From NCBI GenBank assembly GCA_036514715.1, contig DATBWR010000011.1, positions 1 to 46,101 on the forward strand: a DNA stretch of 46,101 bases, in the 5' to 3' direction. How positions within the stretch are numbered: the first letter of the stretch is position 1; each line of letters begins with the position of its first letter. Below are positions 26,151-33,189 of this stretch, in pieces. The notes beneath the pieces were generated by a model, which was not told where the DNA came from, ran no database searches, and worked only from the letters and a program-made list of their open reading frames with translations. This DNA is from Candidatus Nanoarchaeia archaeon. GTDB lineage: Bacteria > Patescibacteriota > Microgenomatia > Woykebacterales > RBG-16-39-9b. The translations under genes were made by a program, and so were the position numbers.

Positions 26151-29024
26151 TTAGGATTTCAAGAGTTTTCTTGAAAGCGTTTGATAAAGGTACTGTCCGG
26201 TTGAACTTTTCCTCGAAGAAGCGACCTGATTAATGGTTCCGCTGGCAATCAAATACCCACCTTGATTTCCCCCACCCGGACCCAAGTCAATAACCCAGTC
26301 AGCTGTCTTAACAATGTCTAGGTTATGCTCGATAATTAAAACCGTATTTCCTAGCTCTACCAAACGGTGGAGAACGGAGAGAAGGTTGTCAATATCAGCA
26401 AAGTGTAAACCAGTGGTGGGCTCATCAAGAATGTAAAGAGTTTTGCCAGAAGAGCGTTTGGCAAGCTCAGTTGACAATTTTATTCTTTGGGCTTCCCCAC
26501 CAGAAAGGGTCGTCGCGGCCTGCCCAAGCTTCATGTAACCCAAGCCAACTTGGTTTAGGGTGTCTATTTTAGCGGCAATTGTGGGGATTTTGTCAAAAAA
26601 ACTGCTTGCCTCTTCAACCGTCATCTCCAAAATTTCGGCGATATTCTTGCCTTTATAGTTAATTTCCAGAGCTTCTCGGTTGTAGCGCTTACCGTTGCAG
26701 GTCTCACAAGTAACATAAACGTCTGGTAAAAACTGCATTTCAATTTTTATCACTCCGTCGCCCTGACAAGTTTCACATCTACCGCCCTTAACGTTAAAGG
26801 AAAACCTACCGGCACTGTAACCCCTAAGCTTGGCTTCTGGAGTGAGAGCAAAAATTTCCCGGATATGCGTAAAAGCACCAGTATAGGTGGCTGGATTACT
26901 ACGGGGAGTACGACCGATTGGGGATTGATCAATATCAATAATTTTATCTAGATTTTCAACTCCTAAAATTGCCTCGTGTTCACCCGGCTTTTCTTTGGAA
27001 GAATAAAACTTCTGAAACAGGGCTTTTTTCAAAATATCCTCCACCAGGGTTGATTTTCCACTACCGGAAACACCAGTAACACAGACAAATTTTCCTAAAG
27101 GTATTTCAACATCAATATTCTTTAAATTGTGCTCTCTGGCGCCTTTAATAATTAGTTTCTGGCGGTTTTCCTGACGAGAAAATTTTTTCCCAATATCAAA
27201 AGCCACTTGTCTTTTTCCTGCCAAGTATTGTCCGGTTAAAGAGTTTGGGTCTCTGATAATTTGGCTTGGAGTACCACTTGCAATTACCCTTCCACCGTGT
27301 TCTCCTGCCCCTGGACCAATATCTACTAAATAGTCAGCTGCGAGCATCACCTCACGATCATGCTCAACCACTAAAACCGTGTTGCCTAAATCTCGCAAAG
27401 AAAGTAAGGTTTTGATTAACTTGTCGTTGTCTTTAGGATGCAAGCCAATCGTCGGTTCATCCAAAACGTAAAGAACTCCGGATAAACCGGAACCGATTTG
27501 AGAAGCCAGTCTTATCCTCTGGGCTTCCCCACCCGCCAAGCTAGAAGATTTACGGTTAAGTGTCAGGTAATTGAGACCAACGTCAACCAAAAAGCGCAAG
27601 CGAGAGTTGATTTCTTTCAAAACTTGCTTGGAAATGAGCTCTTCTTTACTGGTGAGTCTTAGGTTCTCAAACCACTCTAGTGCGTCTTCAACGGCAAGAC
27701 CTGCAATATCGACAATCGACTTACCGTTGATGGTAATGAACAAGGCTTCCCCCTTAATACGGGCTCCCCGACAGACCTCACAAGTTTCTTCTCGCATATA
27801 TTTCTCAATTTCACGTTTTACCCAGTCACTTTCACTTTCTCTATAACGGCGTAAAAGTTCAGGTACCAACCCTTCGAAAGTGGTGTCAAAAGAAATTGTT
27901 CGTCCAAAACGGTTACGGCCAGTGACCCGGAAAATCTCTTGATCACTTCCGTAAAGAATAATCGAGAGTACCTCTCTGGGTAGCTCAAAAATAGGATCGG
28001 AGAGTGAAAAACCTAGATGTTCTGCCAGTCCCTCCAAGCGCCGAGCTGACCAAGTGTCGTGAGAAAGCATTCTGCTCCAAGGGTGGACCGCTCCTTCGCT
28101 AATGGAGAGGTGTTTATTGGGGATAACTAAATCAGGATCCACCGTCATCTTCGTGCCTAAACCACTGCAAGCGCTACAGGCTCCTTGGGGAGAATTGAAG
28201 GAAAAAGTTCTTGGCTCAATTTCTGGTAAGGAGAGACCATGCTCCGGGCAGGCAAAGTTTTCGGAAAAAAGTCTGTCCTCTAAACCTTCTTGGGAGACGA
28301 TCAAAAGCCCTTCACCTACTCTCAAAGCAGTTTCTACTGATTCAGTTAAACGCTGTCTTTCCACCCCTGAAACTAAACGATCAATAACTACTTCAATATT
28401 ATGAATCTTGTAACGGTCGAGCTTGGGTGTTTCGCTAATTTCGTAAACGTTCCCATCCACACGTACTCTCACGAAACCTTGTTTTTGAAGATCACGAAAG
28501 ATATCTTCGTAAATACCCTTACGGGCGCGGACTACTGGCGCCAAAACCAAGACAACGTTTTCCTTATTACTTTTAACTTCTAACTTCTTACTTAGGCTTT
28601 CGATTTGGTCAACAATTTCCTGAGATGTTTGGGCTTTAATTTCCCGTCCGTCAACCGGACAGTGCGGTACACCAATTCTAGCCCAAAGTAGCCTCATATA
28701 ATCATAGATTTCCGTGATCGTTCCGACAGTAGAACGGGGGTTGCGGGAAGCGGTTTTTTGGTCAATGGAGATGGCTGGCGACAAACCCTCAATTTGGTCA
28801 ACGTCCGGCTTTTCCATTAAGCCTAAGAATTGGCGAGCGTAAGCTGATAAACTCTCAACGTAACGGCGCTGGCCTTCAGCGTAAATAGTGTCAAAAGCCA
28901 GGGAGCTTTTGCCGCTACCGGAAATTCCGGTTAAAACCACCAGAGAATTTTTAGGGATTTCCAAATCAACGTTTTTGAGATTATGCTCGCGAGCGCCTCG
29001 TATGACAATTTTATCTACAACCAT
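26151..29024 (-). CDS. uvrA: Excinuclease ABC subunit A
   Basis: GAREHNLKN x2, GSGKSS/T x2, Zn fingers, LSGGEAQRIKL. Confidence 0.98.
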   Translation of the reverse strand: MVVDKIVIRGAREHNLKNVDLEIPKNSLVVLTGISGSGKSSLAFDTIYAEGQRRYVESLSAYARQFLGLMEKPDVDQIEGLSPAISIDQKTASRNPRSTVGTITEIYDYMRLLWARIGVPHCPVDGREIKAQTSQEIVDQIESLSKKLEVKSNKENVVLVLAPVVRARKGIYEDIFRDLQKQGFVRVRVDGNVYEISETPKLDRYKIHNIEVVIDRLVSGVERQRLTESVETALRVGEGLLIVSQEGLEDRLFSENFACPEHGLSLPEIEPRTFSFNSPQGACSACSGLGTKMTVDPDLVIPNKHLSISEGAVHPWSRMLSHDTWSARRLEGLAEHLGFSLSDPIFELPREVLSIILYGSDQEIFRVTGRNRFGRTISFDTTFEGLVPELLRRYRESESDWVKREIEKYMREETCEVCRGARIKGEALFITINGKSIVDIAGLAVEDALEWFENLRLTSKEELISKQVLKEINSRLRFLVDVGLNYLTLNRKSSSLAGGEAQRIRLASQIGSGLSGVLYVLDEPTIGLHPKDNDKLIKTLLSLRDLGNTVLVVEHDREVMLAADYLVDIGPGAGEHGGRVIASGTPSQIIRDPNSLTGQYLAGKRQVAFDIGKKFSRQENRQKLIIKGAREHNLKNIDVEIPLGKFVCVTGVSGSGKSTLVEDILKKALFQKFYSSKEKPGEHEAILGVENLDKIIDIDQSPIGRTPRSNPATYTGAFTHIREIFALTPEAKLRGYSAGRFSFNVKGGRCETCQGDGVIKIEMQFLPDVYVTCETCNGKRYNREALEINYKGKNIAEILEMTVEEASSFFDKIPTIAAKIDTLNQVGLGYMKLGQAATTLSGGEAQRIKLSTELAKRSSGKTLYILDEPTTGLHFADIDNLLSVLHRLVELGNTVLIIEHNLDIVKTADWVIDLGPGGGNQGGYLIASGTINQVASSRKSSTGQYLYQTLSRKLLKS

Positions 29025-29058
29025 CGGCTTTGTCCTTTGGGCAAGTTAGATCCGTAAA

Positions 29059-29087
29059 ATTTTACCCCTTTTGGCAAGTTTGTGCAA
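29059..29087 (-). promoter_or_regulatory. sigma70 promoter of uvrA
   Basis: TTGCAC-17-TAAAAT on the minus strand. Confidence 0.7.
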
Positions 29088-29111
29088 GACTAGGGAGCTG
29101 TTAACACGGAA

Positions 29112-29140
29112 TTGACTTACAGTCGAAAAAGTTATAAGAT
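29112..29140 (+). promoter_or_regulatory. sigma70 promoter driving the non-coding element
   Basis: TTGACT-17-TAAGAT with no + strand ORF downstream. Confidence 0.7.
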
Positions 29141-29146
29141 CTGCCT

Positions 29147-29806
29147 GTTGATTGGAGTAGAGTGGATGTGTTTTCAAGACTGGTAGGGTTTGAGGGTTTC
29201 CTCCATGGGTAAGTTGAAAAAACTTGGCTATGGTTAATACCCTCACTAACTTTGGTTACGTTCCTAGGAGGCGGGGCCTAGGGGCTAACATCTAGAGCGG
29301 CTCGCACCCTCGTGGTCGCTTGGGTCGCTCTACGATAAACTAACAGACGTGTGGCCTTTCGCAGTCAAGGCCCGTCTGTTTTTCGAGGGAGAGGTTGACC
29401 GACCGACGGATCCTAGACTCTGATGTCTAGTCCAGTTCTCGTAAACCCCGAGCGAGACTGGGGCCTCTCCCTAAACAAGGTGAAAACGGACTGGCTGGGC
29501 ATTAGTCAGGACGTTTAGATCCGGCAAGGGCCGTTGTCTTGCTCTCGAGTAAGTAAACCTTAAAGGGTTCGAAGGTCTCGACCGGAGATAACTTATAGGT
29601 GGTCTGAAAGATCCGAAAGGATAAAAGGGCATTTGGCAGGTGGTTCACCCATCTTAAAACCTTGCCGTAAAAACAATTAATTCTGACTGTGTTAATGGTG
29701 CTAGCAGTCAGAATGGACCGCAGTTCCTCCTTTCGCAGGGTCCAACGTCGCCCCGAGGACCCTAATAGCTCTCTTGTTTGCACCGGCAAGAGAGCTCTTT
29801 CTTTTT
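29147..29806 (+). ncRNA. Candidate large (~660 nt) multi-helix non-coding RNA, family unidentified
   Basis: Promoter, more than 10 helices with G-U pairs on the + strand, a GAAA tetraloop, 5' end pairing with 29674-29681, and an intrinsic terminator. Confidence 0.7.
29767..29806 (+). terminator. Intrinsic terminator of the ncRNA candidate
   Basis: AGCTCTCTTGTT-loop-GGCAAGAGAGCT then CTTTCTTTTT; wobble pairs and T-run orient it +, opposite to both flanking genes. Confidence 0.8.
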
Positions 29807-29814
29807 CTCAAGAA

Positions 29815-29838
29815 ATATATGAATGATTATTCATATAT
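29815..29838 (-). terminator. AT-rich hairpin after uvrB
   Basis: ATATATGAAT-gatt-ATTCATATAT, 9 nt past the uvrB stop. Confidence 0.45.
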
Positions 29839-29847
29839 CTTTGTGGC

Positions 29848-31851
29848 TTACTTTTTGGTAACTGTTTTGGGAATTTTTACTTCGCTGCCTTTCAGCTCCA
29901 AAATCTGATCGCGAATTAAGGCCGCTCGTTCAAAATCCAAAGTATCCGCAGCCAACTTCATTTCCCTTTCCAAATCGCCGATTAAACGACGTAGTTCTGT
30001 TTTAGGAACGCGGGTTAGATCCAGCTCCTGGCTAGTCGTAGCTTGGGGCTGAATTTCAGAGAGTCTTTCCGAAATATCGTGAATGGTTTTGTTAATTGAT
30101 TGGGCGGTGATGCCGTGCTTGTTGTTATATTCAACCTGAATTTGCCGGCGGCGGTTAGTTTCGTCAATGGCTGCTTTCATTGACCCTGTAATATTGTCGG
30201 CGTACATGATCACCTTGCTACCAACTCGACGGGCAGCTCTACCGATAGTTTGGACAAGCGCGGTTTTACTGCGCAAAAACCCCTCTTTGTCCGCATCCAA
30301 AATGGCCACTAACGCTACTTCCGGCAAATCAAGTCCTTCACGCAAAAGGTTTACCCCAACTAAAACATCGTAAACCCCCCTGCGCAAATCCGCCAAAACT
30401 TCCACCCTCTCTAAAGTATCAACTTCGTGGTGAATATACATTACTTTGACTTGCCTCTCACGCAAGAACTCGGTCAAATCTTCAGCCATCCTTTTAGTCA
30501 AAGTAGTCACCAATACTCGCTCGCCTTTTTCAACCCGACTGTTAATTTCCTTAATAAGATCTGGGATTTGCCCCTCAGTTTCCCGAACTTCAACTTCTGG
30601 GTCTACAATCCCAGTGGGTCGAATAATTTGCTCCACAACAGAATCCGAGATTGAGAGCTCGTAATCAGATGGTGTCGCGCTGGTATAAATTACTTGGCGC
30701 TCTTTGCGGGCAAATTCATCAAAAGTTAAAGGTCGGTTATCGGCTGCCGAAGGCAAGCGAAAGCCGTTATCAATAAGAACAGTCTTTCGAGCGCGTTCTC
30801 CATGCCACATACCCCGCAGTTGGGGCAGGGTCATGTGGCTTTCATCAATAACCAGCAAGAAATCCTTGGGAAAATAATCTAGCAAGGTGTAAGGCGGTTC
30901 ACCGCTCTTGCGGCCATCAAAATAACGGCTGTAGTTTTCAATACCGTTGCAATAACCTAAGTTTTCAATCATCTCAAGATCATAGTTAGTTCTACTCTCC
31001 AATCTTTGAGCTTCCACCAATTTGTTTTGCTCTTTTAAGTTTTTTAGACGCTCTTTTAGATCTTTACGAATTTCTGCTAAAGGACTAGTAAGGTTTTTCT
31101 CAGGCATGACGTAATGCCGGGCTGGATAAATGTCGATTTCGGAAAGTTGCCCTTCTTTTACAAACGAACGCGGGTTCAGTTGCTCGATTTTCTCAATTTG
31201 GTCACCAAGCAAACTAATCCGCAGAGCAAAATTTTCATAGGCTGGGTAAATTTCAAAAATATCACCTTTAACCCGGAAGGTGGAGCGCTTTAACTCAAAA
31301 TCATTTCGTTCGTATTGGATCTCATTTAACGACCTAAAAAGATCATGCAAACGGACGTGTTCTCCCACTTTTAATTCAACTAAACTTCTCTGAAAAGCTA
31401 GGGGTGATCCTAAGTTATAAATACAGGAAACGCTGGCGACAATCAGCACGTCGGCTCGTGTGAGGAGAGCTTTGGTGGCTGCTAGACGCAGGCGGTCAAT
31501 TTCTTCGTTGATAGCTGCATCTTTTTCAATGTAAAGATCAATTTGGGGGACGTAGGCTTCCGGCTGGTAATAGTCGTAGTAGGAAACAAAATACTCGACT
31601 GCGTTTTTGGGGAAAAACTCTCGGTATTCGCTGGCTAGTTGGGCTGCTAGGGTTTTGTTGTGGGCAATTACCAGAGTTGGTTTATTAATTTGTGAAACAA
31701 CATTAGCCACGGTGAAAGTTTTGCCAGTACCGGTCGCGCCCAGCAATGTTTGGTGTTTATCACCTTTTTTTAAACCTTGTACCAACTTCTCAATCGCCTG
31801 TGGTTGATCTCCGGTTGGTTGGAAAGGGAAAGCTAGTTCAAACTTGTCCAT
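29848..31851 (-). CDS. uvrB: Excinuclease ABC subunit B
   Basis: PTGDQPQAI, GATGTGKT, YYDYYQPEAY, DESH, NLLREGLD, C-terminal UVR. Start MDKFEL at 31851. Confidence 0.98.
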   Translation of the reverse strand: MDKFELAFPFQPTGDQPQAIEKLVQGLKKGDKHQTLLGATGTGKTFTVANVVSQINKPTLVIAHNKTLAAQLASEYREFFPKNAVEYFVSYYDYYQPEAYVPQIDLYIEKDAAINEEIDRLRLAATKALLTRADVLIVASVSCIYNLGSPLAFQRSLVELKVGEHVRLHDLFRSLNEIQYERNDFELKRSTFRVKGDIFEIYPAYENFALRISLLGDQIEKIEQLNPRSFVKEGQLSEIDIYPARHYVMPEKNLTSPLAEIRKDLKERLKNLKEQNKLVEAQRLESRTNYDLEMIENLGYCNGIENYSRYFDGRKSGEPPYTLLDYFPKDFLLVIDESHMTLPQLRGMWHGERARKTVLIDNGFRLPSAADNRPLTFDEFARKERQVIYTSATPSDYELSISDSVVEQIIRPTGIVDPEVEVRETEGQIPDLIKEINSRVEKGERVLVTTLTKRMAEDLTEFLRERQVKVMYIHHEVDTLERVEVLADLRRGVYDVLVGVNLLREGLDLPEVALVAILDADKEGFLRSKTALVQTIGRAARRVGSKVIMYADNITGSMKAAIDETNRRRQIQVEYNNKHGITAQSINKTIHDISERLSEIQPQATTSQELDLTRVPKTELRRLIGDLEREMKLAADTLDFERAALIRDQILELKGSEVKIPKTVTKK

Positions 31852-31861
31852 CGAAAAGTGT

Positions 31862-31890
31862 ATTTTAACCCAAGCGCTACCCTCTGTCAT
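31862..31890 (-). promoter_or_regulatory. sigma70 promoter of uvrB
   Basis: ATGACA-17-TAAAAT, 10 nt before ATG. Confidence 0.7.
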
Positions 31891-31892
31891 CT

Positions 31893-32164
31893 GCTGACTA
31901 GTGGATTGTTAGTCTGAGACAATTTCTACGATCGTAGATTCTGTCTCACTGGTTAGCTCTGCAAAGTTTTGGAGAAAGAAATCCGCAGCCAGAGCAGTGT
32001 AACTGGATGTTACAAAGTTCTAACTGCGGATGCGTCGGAAAGATGGCAGGAGAGGATGTGAGTTCCCCAACACATCAATTCACAACTTACGCTGTGTTTC
32101 TCTCCTGCCCTTGCTCACTCAAGTGGTAGGACCCGCATCAAACCACTTGAGGTATTGCTTTTTT
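31893..32164 (+). ncRNA. Candidate structured RNA (four consecutive stem domains)
   Basis: GCTGACTAGTG/CACTGGTTAGC, TGAGACA/TGTCTCA, ATCCGCAG/CTGCGGAT, GGCAGGAGAG/CTCTCCTGCC, CTCAAGTGGT/ACCACTTGAG then T6. G-U pairs favour +; no clear promoter. Confidence 0.5.
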
Positions 32165-32176
32165 AGGGGAGGATTT

Positions 32177-32443
32177 AACAGTTGCCCACTCGTAGCCAAA
32201 CAACCGTGATCCGGGCCGCCTGTGCGTCCCGAACCACACTCCGCCAGTCTCTCGCAAGCAGGGAGCGCGCAGGCCTGCTTACGGTTTACCCACTCTCTCT
32301 TAATAGGGACATCTCGACGGTGGCAAGTCGTATGGACGCATTAACTTGCCCGACTCGTACCCGGGTGTCAACGAGGAGTAGCCAGAGATACGGTCACGAC
32401 AACCGCAACGTCCGCTCTGCAAGGGGCTTCACCCAACTACCCA
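32177..32443 (-). ncRNA. Candidate ~270-nt structured RNA divergent from lexA
   Basis: Promoter TTTACA-16-TATAAT (32449-32476, minus); terminal helix GGTAGTTG/CAACTGTT; internal helices TGCGGT/ACCGTA, GGCAAGTT/GACTTGCC, AACCGT/ACGGTT. Confidence 0.6.
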
Positions 32444-32507
32444 TCATTATTATAATTAAAAAGAACATTTTGTAAAGTCTGATCATTTCTGAGTCTATAA
32501 GATCCAG

Positions 32508-32537
32508 TTGACAGAGTCTCCGAAAAAAGGCAATAAT
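32508..32537 (+). promoter_or_regulatory. sigma70 promoter of lexA
   Basis: TTGACA-18-AATAAT. Confidence 0.55.
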
Positions 32538-32568
32538 TTAACCAGAAATTCACCAAAAGGAAAACTTT

Positions 32569-33189
32569 ATGCCACCAGTAGTTTACCGCCGCCAACGCGA
32601 CTTGTTAGAATTTATTTCTCAGTACATGCAGAAAAAAGGCTACGCTCCAACCCTAGCAGAAATTTGCGATGGCATTGGTTTGCGTTCTCCGGCCACTGTT
32701 CATGAGCATATCGAAAATTTAATCGAAAAAGGGATTTTAAAAAAAACCGAAGGAGCTCGCCGGGGCCTAGAAATTGTTGATCAAAAGGCTATGGGTTGGG
32801 TTCCGACTGGTGTTGAAGTACCAATTTTTGGCAAAATTGCCGCCGGCCACCCTCTTGAGGCAATTAACGACCCTACCCAAACTCTCACTATTCCGGAAGA
32901 TATGGTTGGTAACAAGCGGACCTATGTTTTACAAGTCAAGGGCGATTCAATGATTGAAGCAGCTATTTTGGATGGGGACTTTGTCTTAGTTGAGGCTACA
33001 GAAACTGCCAATAACGGCGAAATTATTGTGGCTCTTATCAACGATAATTTTGCTACGCTCAAACGTTATTTCAAAGAAACAGACCACATCCGCCTGGAAC
33101 CAGCCAACTCTTCCATGAACCCAATTATTGTGCGCGGCAATATCCAAATCCAAGGCCGCGTGACTGGGGTTATCCGTAAGTATAATTAG
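32569..33189 (+). CDS. lexA: SOS repressor LexA
   Basis: GYAPT..EI...SPATVHEH HTH; IAAG cleavage site; GDSM (Ser); TLKR (Lys). Confidence 0.96.
   Translation: MPPVVYRRQRDLLEFISQYMQKKGYAPTLAEICDGIGLRSPATVHEHIENLIEKGILKKTEGARRGLEIVDQKAMGWVPTGVEVPIFGKIAAGHPLEAINDPTQTLTIPEDMVGNKRTYVLQVKGDSMIEAAILDGDFVLVEATETANNGEIIVALINDNFATLKRYFKETDHIRLEPANSSMNPIIVRGNIQIQGRVTGVIRKYN

Follow-up and report, generated by a model that had tools for sequence, protein, structure and literature searches.

Two candidate structured RNA genes in the variable spacers flanking uvrB of a Patescibacteria genome

Introduction

Several large noncoding RNAs (ncRNAs) that had no known function at discovery, among them the raiA motif and the OLE, GOLLD, and ROOL RNAs, are intergenic, GC-enriched, multi-hairpin RNAs of several hundred nucleotides which carry their own promoter and terminator and combine conserved motifs with variable inserts. 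Here we describe two candidate RNA genes, RNA-1 and RNA-2, which resemble these orphan RNAs in all of these respects and which lie on either side of uvrB in a 46,101-nt stretch of DNA (the window; contig DATBWR010000011.1 of assembly GCA_036514715.1, filed under Candidatus Nanoarchaeia archaeon). We judge it fairly probable that each of the two spacers is occupied by one new, narrowly distributed structured ncRNA gene lodged in a variable spacer around uvrB, and both RNAs are probably free-standing RNA products.

Other described systems also resemble this locus in part. In Escherichia coli, istR adjoins tisAB and encodes short antisense regulators of the adjacent toxin mRNA, with a mapped LexA box; like RNA-1 and RNA-2, it is an ncRNA gene divergent from a LexA-controlled promoter region. 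The Pedo-repair RNA motif of Pedobacter, listed in Rfam, is likewise a candidate structured RNA defined by its position at DNA-repair genes. The layout of RNA-2, in which a conserved structured domain and then a terminator precede a gene transcribed in the same direction, is also that of riboswitch and attenuator leaders.

The lineage is part of the candidate phyla radiation (Patescibacteria). The genome of the window (G000) comprises 882 kb in 17 contigs and is 96% complete, and the window is the first 46.1 kb of its contig C11. The comparison set consisted of 16 relatives from the same family and one metagenome contig (L049), and the order set comprised 21 genomes; the relatives' genomes all measure 0.6 to 1.8 Mb. 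A first-pass annotation of the window, made by a model from the letters and their open reading frames (ORFs), had drawn attention to the two spacers and had proposed that they encode three RNAs linked to DNA damage.

Results

Two long noncoding spacers and their predicted RNAs

The first spacer, between uvrA and uvrB, comprises positions 29025 to 29847 (823 nt). The second, between lexA and uvrB, comprises positions 31891 to 32568 (678 nt) if the longest ORF of uvrB is taken, and positions 31852 to 32568 (717 nt) after relocation of the uvrB start to 31851; because of this relocation, its length agrees with the approximately 720 nt given in the first-pass annotation. The GC content of the spacers was 0.50 to 0.535, compared with 0.38 to 0.48 in the flanking coding DNA. 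As that annotation had stated, these are the two long gaps of the window (it gave the first as approximately 820 nt): all other non-tRNA intergenic gaps were no longer than 177 nt, and larger intergenic stretches were tRNA clusters only. Its remark that the gaps contain no convincing ORF was likewise borne out, the ORFs inside both spacers being at most 97 amino acids (aa) long with implausible, noise-like translations. No ORF in either spacer was supported by inspection or by tblastx among the spacers, which returned nothing for G000. Contigs from three other DNA runs matched stretches within the spacers with 0 differences, contig X2 covering the entire first spacer and contig X3 the second spacer from 31966 on. 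When four DNA runs were compared over the region, the contigs were identical and no variants were found in the spacers. The spacers are therefore not an assembly artefact.

Both RNA-1 and RNA-2 were assigned a predicted promoter of their own and an intrinsic terminator on the same strand, in each case as consensus matches only. The predicted elements are as follows.

About 29147 to 29806, plus strand: RNA-1, about 660 nt, its ends placed by the promoter (5') and by the terminator (3')
29112 to 29140, plus strand: predicted RNA-1 promoter, TTGACT-17-TAAGAT, sigma-70-like (promoter scan, 9/12)
29249 to 29340, plus strand: conserved RNA-1 module, consisting of UUUGGUUAC, hairpin P1 with loop AGGCGGGG, and hairpin P2 closed by AUC...GAU
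29767 to 29806, plus strand: predicted RNA-1 intrinsic terminator, with a 12-bp stem, a GCACC-containing loop, and the tail CUUUCUUUUU (terminator scan)
About 32444 to 31966, minus strand: RNA-2, about 480 nt, its ends placed by the promoter (5') and by terminator hairpin A (3')
32449 to 32476, minus strand: predicted RNA-2 promoter, TTTACA-16-TATAAT (promoter scan, 11/12, joint best in the region)
32098 to 32151, minus strand: hairpin C (32118 to 32151), linker GUGAGCAAG, and 5' arm of stem B
32045 to 32109, minus strand: stem B, in which GGCAGGAGAG (32109 to 32100) pairs with CUCUCCUGCC (32054 to 32045)
31966 to 32031, minus strand: hairpin A (31981 to 32031) and its U-rich tail, the predicted RNA-2 intrinsic terminator, abutting the uvrB promoter region

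RNA-2 in the lexA-uvrB spacer

On the strand that is sense for uvrB, a common RNA-2 architecture was observed in G000, in G002, G008, G003, G015, G006, and G011, and in the metagenome contig L049. A 5' domain of variable length (56 to approximately 390 nt) is followed by hairpin C, by the linker GUGA(A)AGCA (GUGAAAGCA in G000), by stem B, which encloses a variable insert (45 nt in G000 and up to approximately 107 nt in relatives), by a second linker that is either short or long, and by hairpin A. Both arms of stem B were almost unchanged in seven of the nine aligned RNAs, and the stem B arms, the linker, and hairpin A recurred in at least seven RNAs despite UvrB identities of 66 to 77%. In stem B, an A-to-G change in G008 gives a G.U pair on the minus strand only, and two doubly changed pairs were read by eye in G015.

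Hairpin C had a different sequence in each genome and always paired. Across five sequences, 7 of its 9 pairs were changed on both sides, and 88.9% of the cells were paired, compared with at most 49% when the pairing was slid. For hairpin A, aligned in nine sequences, 11 of 18 pairs were changed on both sides and 91% of the cells were paired (at most 42% when slid). The covariation score of each of the two hairpins was reached by 0 of 500 shuffles. These pair counts favor structured elements conserved across genera, and since they come from few sequences we regard them as supportive rather than conclusive.

RNA-2 was assigned to the minus strand because of the U.G pairs of hairpin A, its U-tail, and the better fold of that strand. 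A U.G pair was present in hairpin A in five of the nine sequences, which would be A.C on the plus strand, and a U-rich tail followed the hairpin on the minus strand in all nine. The region from 31966 to 32444 folded at −185.6 kcal/mol (z −3.1) on the minus strand versus −164.4 kcal/mol (z −2.2) on the plus strand, a difference of 21 kcal/mol. The RNA-3(+) of the first-pass annotation corresponds to the antisense of the 3' half of RNA-2, and the spacers yielded two RNAs rather than three. The terminator-like site that would end RNA-3(+) lies at hairpin C, where the T-run was full only in G000 and partial in G006, and no plus-strand promoter scoring at least 9/12 preceded it in the promoter scan.

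The predicted RNA-2 promoter is arranged back-to-back with that of lexA, the −35 boxes being 32 bp apart. A TATAAT or TAAAAT box was found by eye at the equivalent place in G002, G006, G008, G009, G011, and L049. At three loci (L128 of G006, L132 of G009, and L049), TTGACT was observed 7 to 8 nt before the RNA-2 TATAAT, rather than the usual 17, and a similar arrangement was observed in the uvrA promoter region of G002. This short spacing represents either an unusual promoter geometry or a regulator site.

RNA-1 in the uvrA-uvrB spacer

RNA-1 was recognized in G000, G002, and G008, the three closest genomes (UvrB 76 to 77% identical), all of which contain its 5' and 3' modules. The RNA begins with a UUGGAGAGAG-like 5' start, followed by the motif UUUGGUUAC and by P1, whose stems differ in sequence among the three genomes yet all pair when read by eye, with the apical loop AGGCGGGG. 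A variant P1 loop, AGGCGAGG, was found in G003. The homologues in G002 and G008 are approximately 250 nt long; in G000, 660 nt separate the conserved 5' and 3' modules. The structure of RNA-1 rests mainly on inspection of these three sequences; RNAalifold on the same three gave 20 pairs, 10 of them with compensatory change, from a poor MAFFT alignment. The terminator was 82.6% identical to that of G008, and in an alignment of six genomes, four of its nine pairs showed compensatory change and the U-rich tail was present in 6/6.

The predicted RNA-1 promoter is arranged back-to-back with the uvrA promoter, with 26 bp between the −35 boxes, and TTGACA-type promoters were read by eye at the same relative place in G002, G008, G003, and G001. 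The first spacer folded at −281.8 kcal/mol (z −5.1) on the plus strand versus −219.9 kcal/mol (z −1.9) on the minus strand, making the RNA-1 plus strand more stable by 62 kcal/mol. The pattern TTTGGTTRC-N8-38-AGGCGRGG matched the uvrA-uvrB spacer in 3 of the 21 genomes of the order set (G000, G002, and G008). A fourth match, in G011, lay inside a 438-aa ORF and was rejected as chance.

One further element was found within RNA-1.

29343 to 29384, plus strand: internal hairpin followed by a U5 run (terminator scan)

This internal hairpin may be either a hairpin P3 or a first terminator that splits RNA-1 in two. A hairpin occurs at the corresponding place in G002 and G008, without a clear U-run. 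In the G002 spacer, positions of approximately 360 to 930 contain a second promoter-terminator unit downstream of the RNA-1 homologue, with six tandem GCGTCT units. This may be another RNA gene, and no counterpart of it was detected in G000.

The uvrB start and the relation of RNA-2 to uvrB

The relation between RNA-2 and uvrB depends on the following features.

29848 to 31851, minus strand: uvrB (Pfam), with the start shifted from 31890 to the ATG at 31851
31862 to 31890, minus strand: predicted uvrB promoter, ATGACA-17-TAAAAT (promoter scan, 10/12), with the −10 box at 31867 to 31862
31915 to 31948, no strand assigned: palindromic hairpin (inverted repeat) between the RNA-2 terminator and the uvrB promoter

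From the ATG at 31851, the G000 protein begins with MDKFEL, and the relatives' proteins start with M[DNEG]KF[EK]L just after an extended −10 box. Judged by this comparison, the longest-ORF start at 31890 is wrong, and its first 13 codons are the uvrB promoter. The distance from the −10 box to the ATG was 10 nt in G000. A GGTTAAAAT-like −10 box was present 6 to 10 nt upstream of the uvrB start codon in the 10 relatives that were read, with or without RNA-2, and no Shine-Dalgarno sequence was found before the ATG in G000 or in these 10 relatives. The predicted uvrB mRNA is nearly leaderless in the family. In relatives, the U-tail of hairpin A leads into the uvrB promoter, ending approximately 11 nt before the extended −10 box. 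The palindromic hairpin at 31915 to 31948 was found only in G000 and is part of an additional 95-nt segment that, in this genome alone, separates the RNA-2 terminator from the uvrB promoter; in the relatives read, hairpin A is followed directly by the promoter.

We considered whether RNA-2 might be a long regulatory leader of uvrB, in which hairpin A would act as an attenuator with read-through set by the B/C domain, as in riboswitches or protein-binding leaders. RNA-2 does lie on the uvrB strand directly upstream of the gene, and a conserved structured domain followed by a terminator is the usual riboswitch layout. Hairpin A was also kept in G005, where no RNA body was readable, part of the spacer reading as N. 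However, a conserved uvrB promoter lies between hairpin A and the ATG and is present also in relatives without RNA-2, and in G000 the terminator and that promoter are separated by the additional segment with its own hairpin. Moreover, on the assumption of leaderless initiation, read-through would leave the start codon in the interior of an RNA that offers no ribosome-binding site. Because uvrB keeps its own −10 box regardless of RNA-2 and has no Shine-Dalgarno sequence, we do not take RNA-2 to be its leader, and we consider that explanation very unlikely.

Given the retention of hairpin A in G005 as well, two constraints may act on its near-invariant 3' arm, one as a terminator and the other as upstream promoter DNA. 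In the lexA-uvrB spacer of that genome (L037), approximately 100 nt read as N, including the lexA promoter block, and only hairpin A and the uvrB promoter are readable.

Distribution of the two RNAs and the variability of the spacers

uvrB was found in 17/17 family genomes, with lexA as its divergent neighbor in 15 of the 16 relatives (the contig of the sixteenth is cut) and, on the opposite flank, uvrA in 15 of 16 (one contig stops at that point). Within this arrangement, the uvrA-uvrB spacer ranged from 81 nt (G010) to approximately 2700 nt (G004); for the lexA-uvrB spacer, lengths of 91 to 1366 nt were observed. Short spacers of the family had a GC content of 16 to 36%, except for 45% in G013, and long spacers were at or above the coding GC level. 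Some of the relatives' long spacers hold unrelated genes, encoding a methyltransferase, a tetratricopeptide repeat (TPR) protein, or a LysE exporter. As far as the compared sequences show, both spacer sites are variable regions in an otherwise fixed gene order. In three relatives (loci L039, L040, and L041 of G012, G015, and G007), a shared small ORF was observed beside uvrA, with tblastx identities of 75 to 78% over 68 to 76 aa and no counterpart in G000.

BLAST searches of the spacers against 61 genomes, together with nhmmer, returned short pieces only, namely the uvrA and lexA promoter blocks, hairpin A in G003, and the G008 terminator. Full-length RNA-2 could not be aligned, and therefore only two short modules were modelled: R1, comprising hairpin C, the linker, and the 5' arm of stem B, and R2, comprising hairpin A. 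R1 gave strong matches in the order set only in G000, G002, G006, and G008 (E values of 2e-11 to 2e-13), the same four genomes from which its training sequences came, and all four lay between lexA and uvrB. R2 gave eight strong matches (E value of 1e-10 or lower) in the order set, all of them within the family and just upstream of uvrB. Under strict filters, R1 matched nothing in 144 sampled genomes of the other families of the class. When all species-representative genomes were searched with a strict pattern for hairpin A, three matches were obtained, one of which was the G003 locus; the other two were GC-rich, had no uvrB or lexA nearby, and were rejected as chance. A metagenome scan with UvrB yielded 80 loci, the best of which was 73% identical; six fell within the family, and no species-level relatives were found among the 80. 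As far as these searches reached, both RNAs appear to be confined to one family and to part of that family.

The variability of the sites is also what would be expected if the spacers were decaying remnants of inserted genes or mobile DNA and the hairpins were leftovers or plain terminators without an RNA function. The wide range of spacer lengths in the family and the methyltransferase, TPR protein, and LysE genes in some relatives fit this explanation, as do the failure to detect homologues for most of the spacer sequence of G000 and the unstructured stretch from 32175 to 32475. In contrast, tblastx revealed no six-frame similarity between the two spacers of G000, or between either of them and the first 1.5 kb of the relatives' spacers, genes further out being left uncompared, and the G000 spacers have a GC content above the coding level, unlike the short spacers of the family. 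Across genera, specific motifs and hairpins have been preserved with compensatory changes, and the promoters and terminators retain the order and strand expected of them. We regard the remnant explanation as unlikely and continue to favor one structured RNA gene per spacer.

Searches for known RNA families

The window was searched with Rfam 15 (4227 models) at the gathering cutoff and at permissive E value thresholds. Above the cutoff, the whole window gave only five tRNAs. At an E value of 10 or lower, the two spacers gave 11 matches, the best with an E value of 0.77, and their scores of 10 to 22 bits compare with cutoffs of 35 to 80 bits. The relatives' loci gave 0 matches at the gathering score (17 loci) and 0 at an E value of 1 or lower (9 loci), and ARAGORN found no transfer-messenger RNA (tmRNA) in the window. 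The suggestion of the first-pass annotation that the RNAs are possibly undescribed is in keeping with these Rfam results. A repeat array was not found in the spacers, which gave only short two- or three-copy matches at chance level and one 10-nt two-copy tandem; a CRISPR or TIGR-type guide array was rejected, there being no tandem or interspaced direct repeat family.

Elsewhere in G000, the RNase P RNA was located on contig C6 with 91.4 bits, which is below the 100-bit Rfam cutoff, and the tmRNA on contig C3. No match to signal recognition particle (SRP) RNA (RF00169) was obtained in 17/17 family genomes, several of which are closed or 100% complete, and the large SRP (RF01854) and 6S models gave no match in G000. 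Housekeeping RNAs appear to be highly divergent in this lineage. These missing matches would be accounted for if one of the two RNAs were a very divergent SRP or 6S RNA that the Rfam models overlook. However, both RNAs are missing from many family members; the two spacers of G010 measure 81 and 96 nt, and neither R1 nor R2 found anything elsewhere in its 83%-complete genome. The lengths range from 250 to 660 nt. In SRP RNA, helix 8 has a GNRA loop with an AGCA motif, and no helix-8-like motif was found in either spacer by eye, or with a regular expression for the motif run on the genome. We consider it extremely improbable that either RNA is SRP or 6S RNA. The same genome scan returned a GUAA-loop/GGAAGCAG motif at C4:34952 to 34970.

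Relation to the SOS genes

The genes beside the two spacers and their promoters are as follows.

26151 to 29024, minus strand: uvrA (Pfam)
32569 to 33189, plus strand: lexA (Pfam)
29059 to 29086, minus strand: predicted uvrA promoter, TGCACA-16-TAAAAT (promoter scan, 9/12)
32508 to 32537, plus strand: lexA promoter, TTGACA-18-AATAAT (promoter scan, 11/12), conserved across the family

Pfam confirmed the identities of uvrA, uvrB, and lexA given by the first-pass annotation. Its proposal that each of these SOS genes has a divergent noncoding partner held for uvrA and lexA, whose promoters are back-to-back with those of RNA-1 and RNA-2, respectively, and failed for uvrB, which has no partner of its own. 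The block from 29053 to 29087 in the uvrA promoter region was conserved in G003, and a 14-nt direct repeat, CCTTTKGGCAAGTT, occurs at 29034 to 29047 and 29067 to 29080, on either side of the uvrA −10 box.

From this arrangement, the first-pass annotation had inferred a DNA damage-linked system, in which the RNAs would be induced together with uvrA, uvrB, and lexA through LexA operators or would be pieces of a multipartite RNA. The SOS network of Patescibacteria is the subject of Sanchez-Osuna et al. 2017, as cited in PMC8565304 and PMC7739468. In favor of such a link, the −35 boxes of the divergent pairs are close together (26 bp for uvrA/RNA-1 and 32 bp for lexA/RNA-2), the RNA-2 modules always lay between lexA and uvrB (4/4 for R1 and 8/8 for R2), and the RNA-1 motif lay between uvrA and uvrB in 3/3 true matches. 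In addition, the RNA-1 promoter spacer contains CGAAAAA, which by eye resembles the CCGAAAA of the lexA promoter spacer. CCGAAAA and AACCAGAAAT are two conserved nonpromoter blocks of the lexA promoter.

Set against this, the two conserved blocks lie within or downstream of the lexA promoter, 45 to 70 bp from the RNA-2 −35 box, and no operator could be defined across the upstream regions of lexA, recA, and uvrA. The 10-mers conserved in at least 8 of 15 lexA upstream regions recurred in at most 1 of 14 recA and at most 1 of 11 uvrA upstream regions, and a direct-repeat regular expression for a LexA operator returned noise only. The RNAs number two rather than three, and both are missing from about half of the family although the lexA-uvrB-uvrA synteny is kept. 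This absence despite an unchanged gene order weakens the link, and the linkage that was seen may reflect vertical inheritance within one family. As to a multipartite RNA, pairing between RNA-1 and RNA-2 amounted to one 13-nt, 85% complementary pair in a general repeat scan of 28900 to 32700, with no dedicated search made.

Pairing of RNA-2 with the neighboring mRNAs was also considered. Against the uvrA and lexA 5' regions of the same genome, RNA-2 gave no significant duplex in six and seven genomes, respectively (P values of 0.115 to 0.965). In G000, GGGCAAGUU of RNA-2 (32343 to 32351) is complementary over 9 bp to AACUUGCCC in the 5' untranslated region of uvrA, beside the ribosome-binding site; since neither G000 nor the relatives showed significance in the duplex test, this match was taken as chance. 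Because no operator was identified and no pairing with neighboring mRNAs was found, the link to the SOS response is one of position alone. We regard a DNA damage-linked system as improbable. The location of the two RNA genes beside the SOS genes is most likely a legacy of old insertions into a variable locus, since inherited, rather than a sign of a shared function.

A palindrome beside the RNA-1 terminator

One further feature was found in the first spacer, outside RNA-1.

29815 to 29840, no strand assigned: palindrome ATATATGAAT-N4-ATTCATATAT, in the interval that separates the RNA-1 terminator from the stop codon of uvrB

This palindrome of 24 bp, with near-perfect arms, occurs in 21 copies in the 882-kb genome of G000, for example at C4:8185, C6:19666, and C13:15832. 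The copies that were inspected seem to be intergenic, beside terminators or promoters. The palindrome is similar to the ARG-box operator consensus, which suggests that it may be the binding site of a global regulator.

Discussion

The evidence is best explained if each spacer contains one RNA gene. RNA-1 would be transcribed on the plus strand from a sigma-70-type promoter back-to-back with that of uvrA and would end at a terminator facing the 3' end of uvrB. RNA-2 would be transcribed on the minus strand from a promoter back-to-back with that of lexA, with a 3' domain made up of hairpin C, the linker, stem B, and hairpin A. It would end at hairpin A, where its U-tail enters the promoter region of the nearly leaderless uvrB. 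The products of both genes would then be stable RNAs functioning in their own right, as riboregulators or as scaffolds for protein binding, rather than serving as leaders for the adjacent genes. Hairpin A would in addition shield the uvrB promoter from upstream transcription in the manner of an insulator. Shine-Dalgarno-like G-rich motifs occur at conserved positions in both RNAs, GGAGGCGGGG in the P1 loop of RNA-1 and CAGGAGAG in stem B of RNA-2. As a speculative best guess at the mode of action, a C/U-rich partner, either RNA or protein, may be bound through these motifs.

Several observations weigh against this interpretation. The RNAs are patchily distributed: among the 17 family genomes, 8 have hairpin A and 4 have the R1 core, which also occurs in one metagenome contig. 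R1 and R2 recovered little beyond their own training sequences. The covariation samples were small (five and nine sequences for the RNA-2 hairpins and three for RNA-1), relatedness among the sequences inflates the shuffle control, and the structures were derived from the same sequences that were used for the counts. Because the stem B arms are nearly invariant, covariation does not prove that they pair. Full-length MAFFT alignments of RNA-2 were structurally incoherent or exceeded 400 columns, and neither the 5' domain of RNA-2 nor the middle 400 nt of RNA-1 has comparative support. None of the 11 listed sequencing runs is on record as RNA, and the function, targets, and regulation that we assign to the two RNAs are all inferred.

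The folding energies must also be read with caution. The first-pass annotation had described the spacers as almost entirely helical. In 150-nt windows, however, z scores of −3 or lower were obtained only at 29175 to 29474 and 29700 to 29849 (in places on both strands) and at 31950 to 32174 (on the minus strand), and the windows from 32175 to 32474, with z scores of −0.6 to +1.3, folded no better than shuffled sequence. Moreover, a coding control window, positions 1 to 790, folded at a z score of −4.0 on the plus strand and −2.5 on the minus strand. This control is part of a 5'-open ORF (positions 1 to 855) with a GC content of 0.51, and its length and GC content are similar to those of the spacers. 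Because of the control value of −4.0, whole-region z scores of approximately −4 to −5 are not specific to RNA genes in this genome.

A bolder reading would treat RNA-1 and RNA-2 as the RNA arm of the DNA damage response, fired from control regions shared with the LexA-controlled uvrA and lexA genes. The RNA-2 terminator on the leaderless uvrB promoter would mechanically couple RNA-2 transcription to uvrB initiation, and the Shine-Dalgarno-like motifs would titrate a C/U-rich partner during recovery. We think it unlikely that the locus works in this way; if the link to the SOS response were true, these would be the first RNA component of the damage response in the candidate phyla radiation. Genomes of this group are smaller than 1 Mb and contain very little noncoding DNA. 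The two RNA genes (250 to 660 nt) occupy 1.1 kb of the 882-kb genome, and since this much of the genome is given to two conserved RNA genes, it can be argued that they have a function worth the cost. RNA-1 and RNA-2 also represent two concrete new RNA families to seek in groundwater and soil metatranscriptomes.

A literature search, which included the main text of the catalogues PMC5737381 and PMC11109978, returned no description of such RNAs in this lineage. Compared with RNA-1 and RNA-2, which are found in one family and are represented by three to nine aligned sequences, the raiA, OLE, GOLLD, and ROOL RNAs span phyla or many genera and are present in Rfam, and none of them matched here. The raiA motif is treated in PMC10861870. 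The Pedo-repair motif is a different and much shorter RNA from Bacteroidota; if it is included in Rfam 15, it gave no match at any threshold. Unlike istR, the present locus has no toxin ORF and no identified LexA box, its RNAs are 250 to 660 nt long, and no pairing with the neighboring 5' regions was detected. In contrast to riboswitch leaders, RNA-2 has its terminator upstream of a separate, conserved uvrB promoter, and uvrB itself is nearly leaderless and without a ribosome-binding site. With an RNA terminator placed directly on the promoter region of a nearly leaderless uvrB, the locus offers a case in which the coupling of an RNA gene to a repair gene can be tested.

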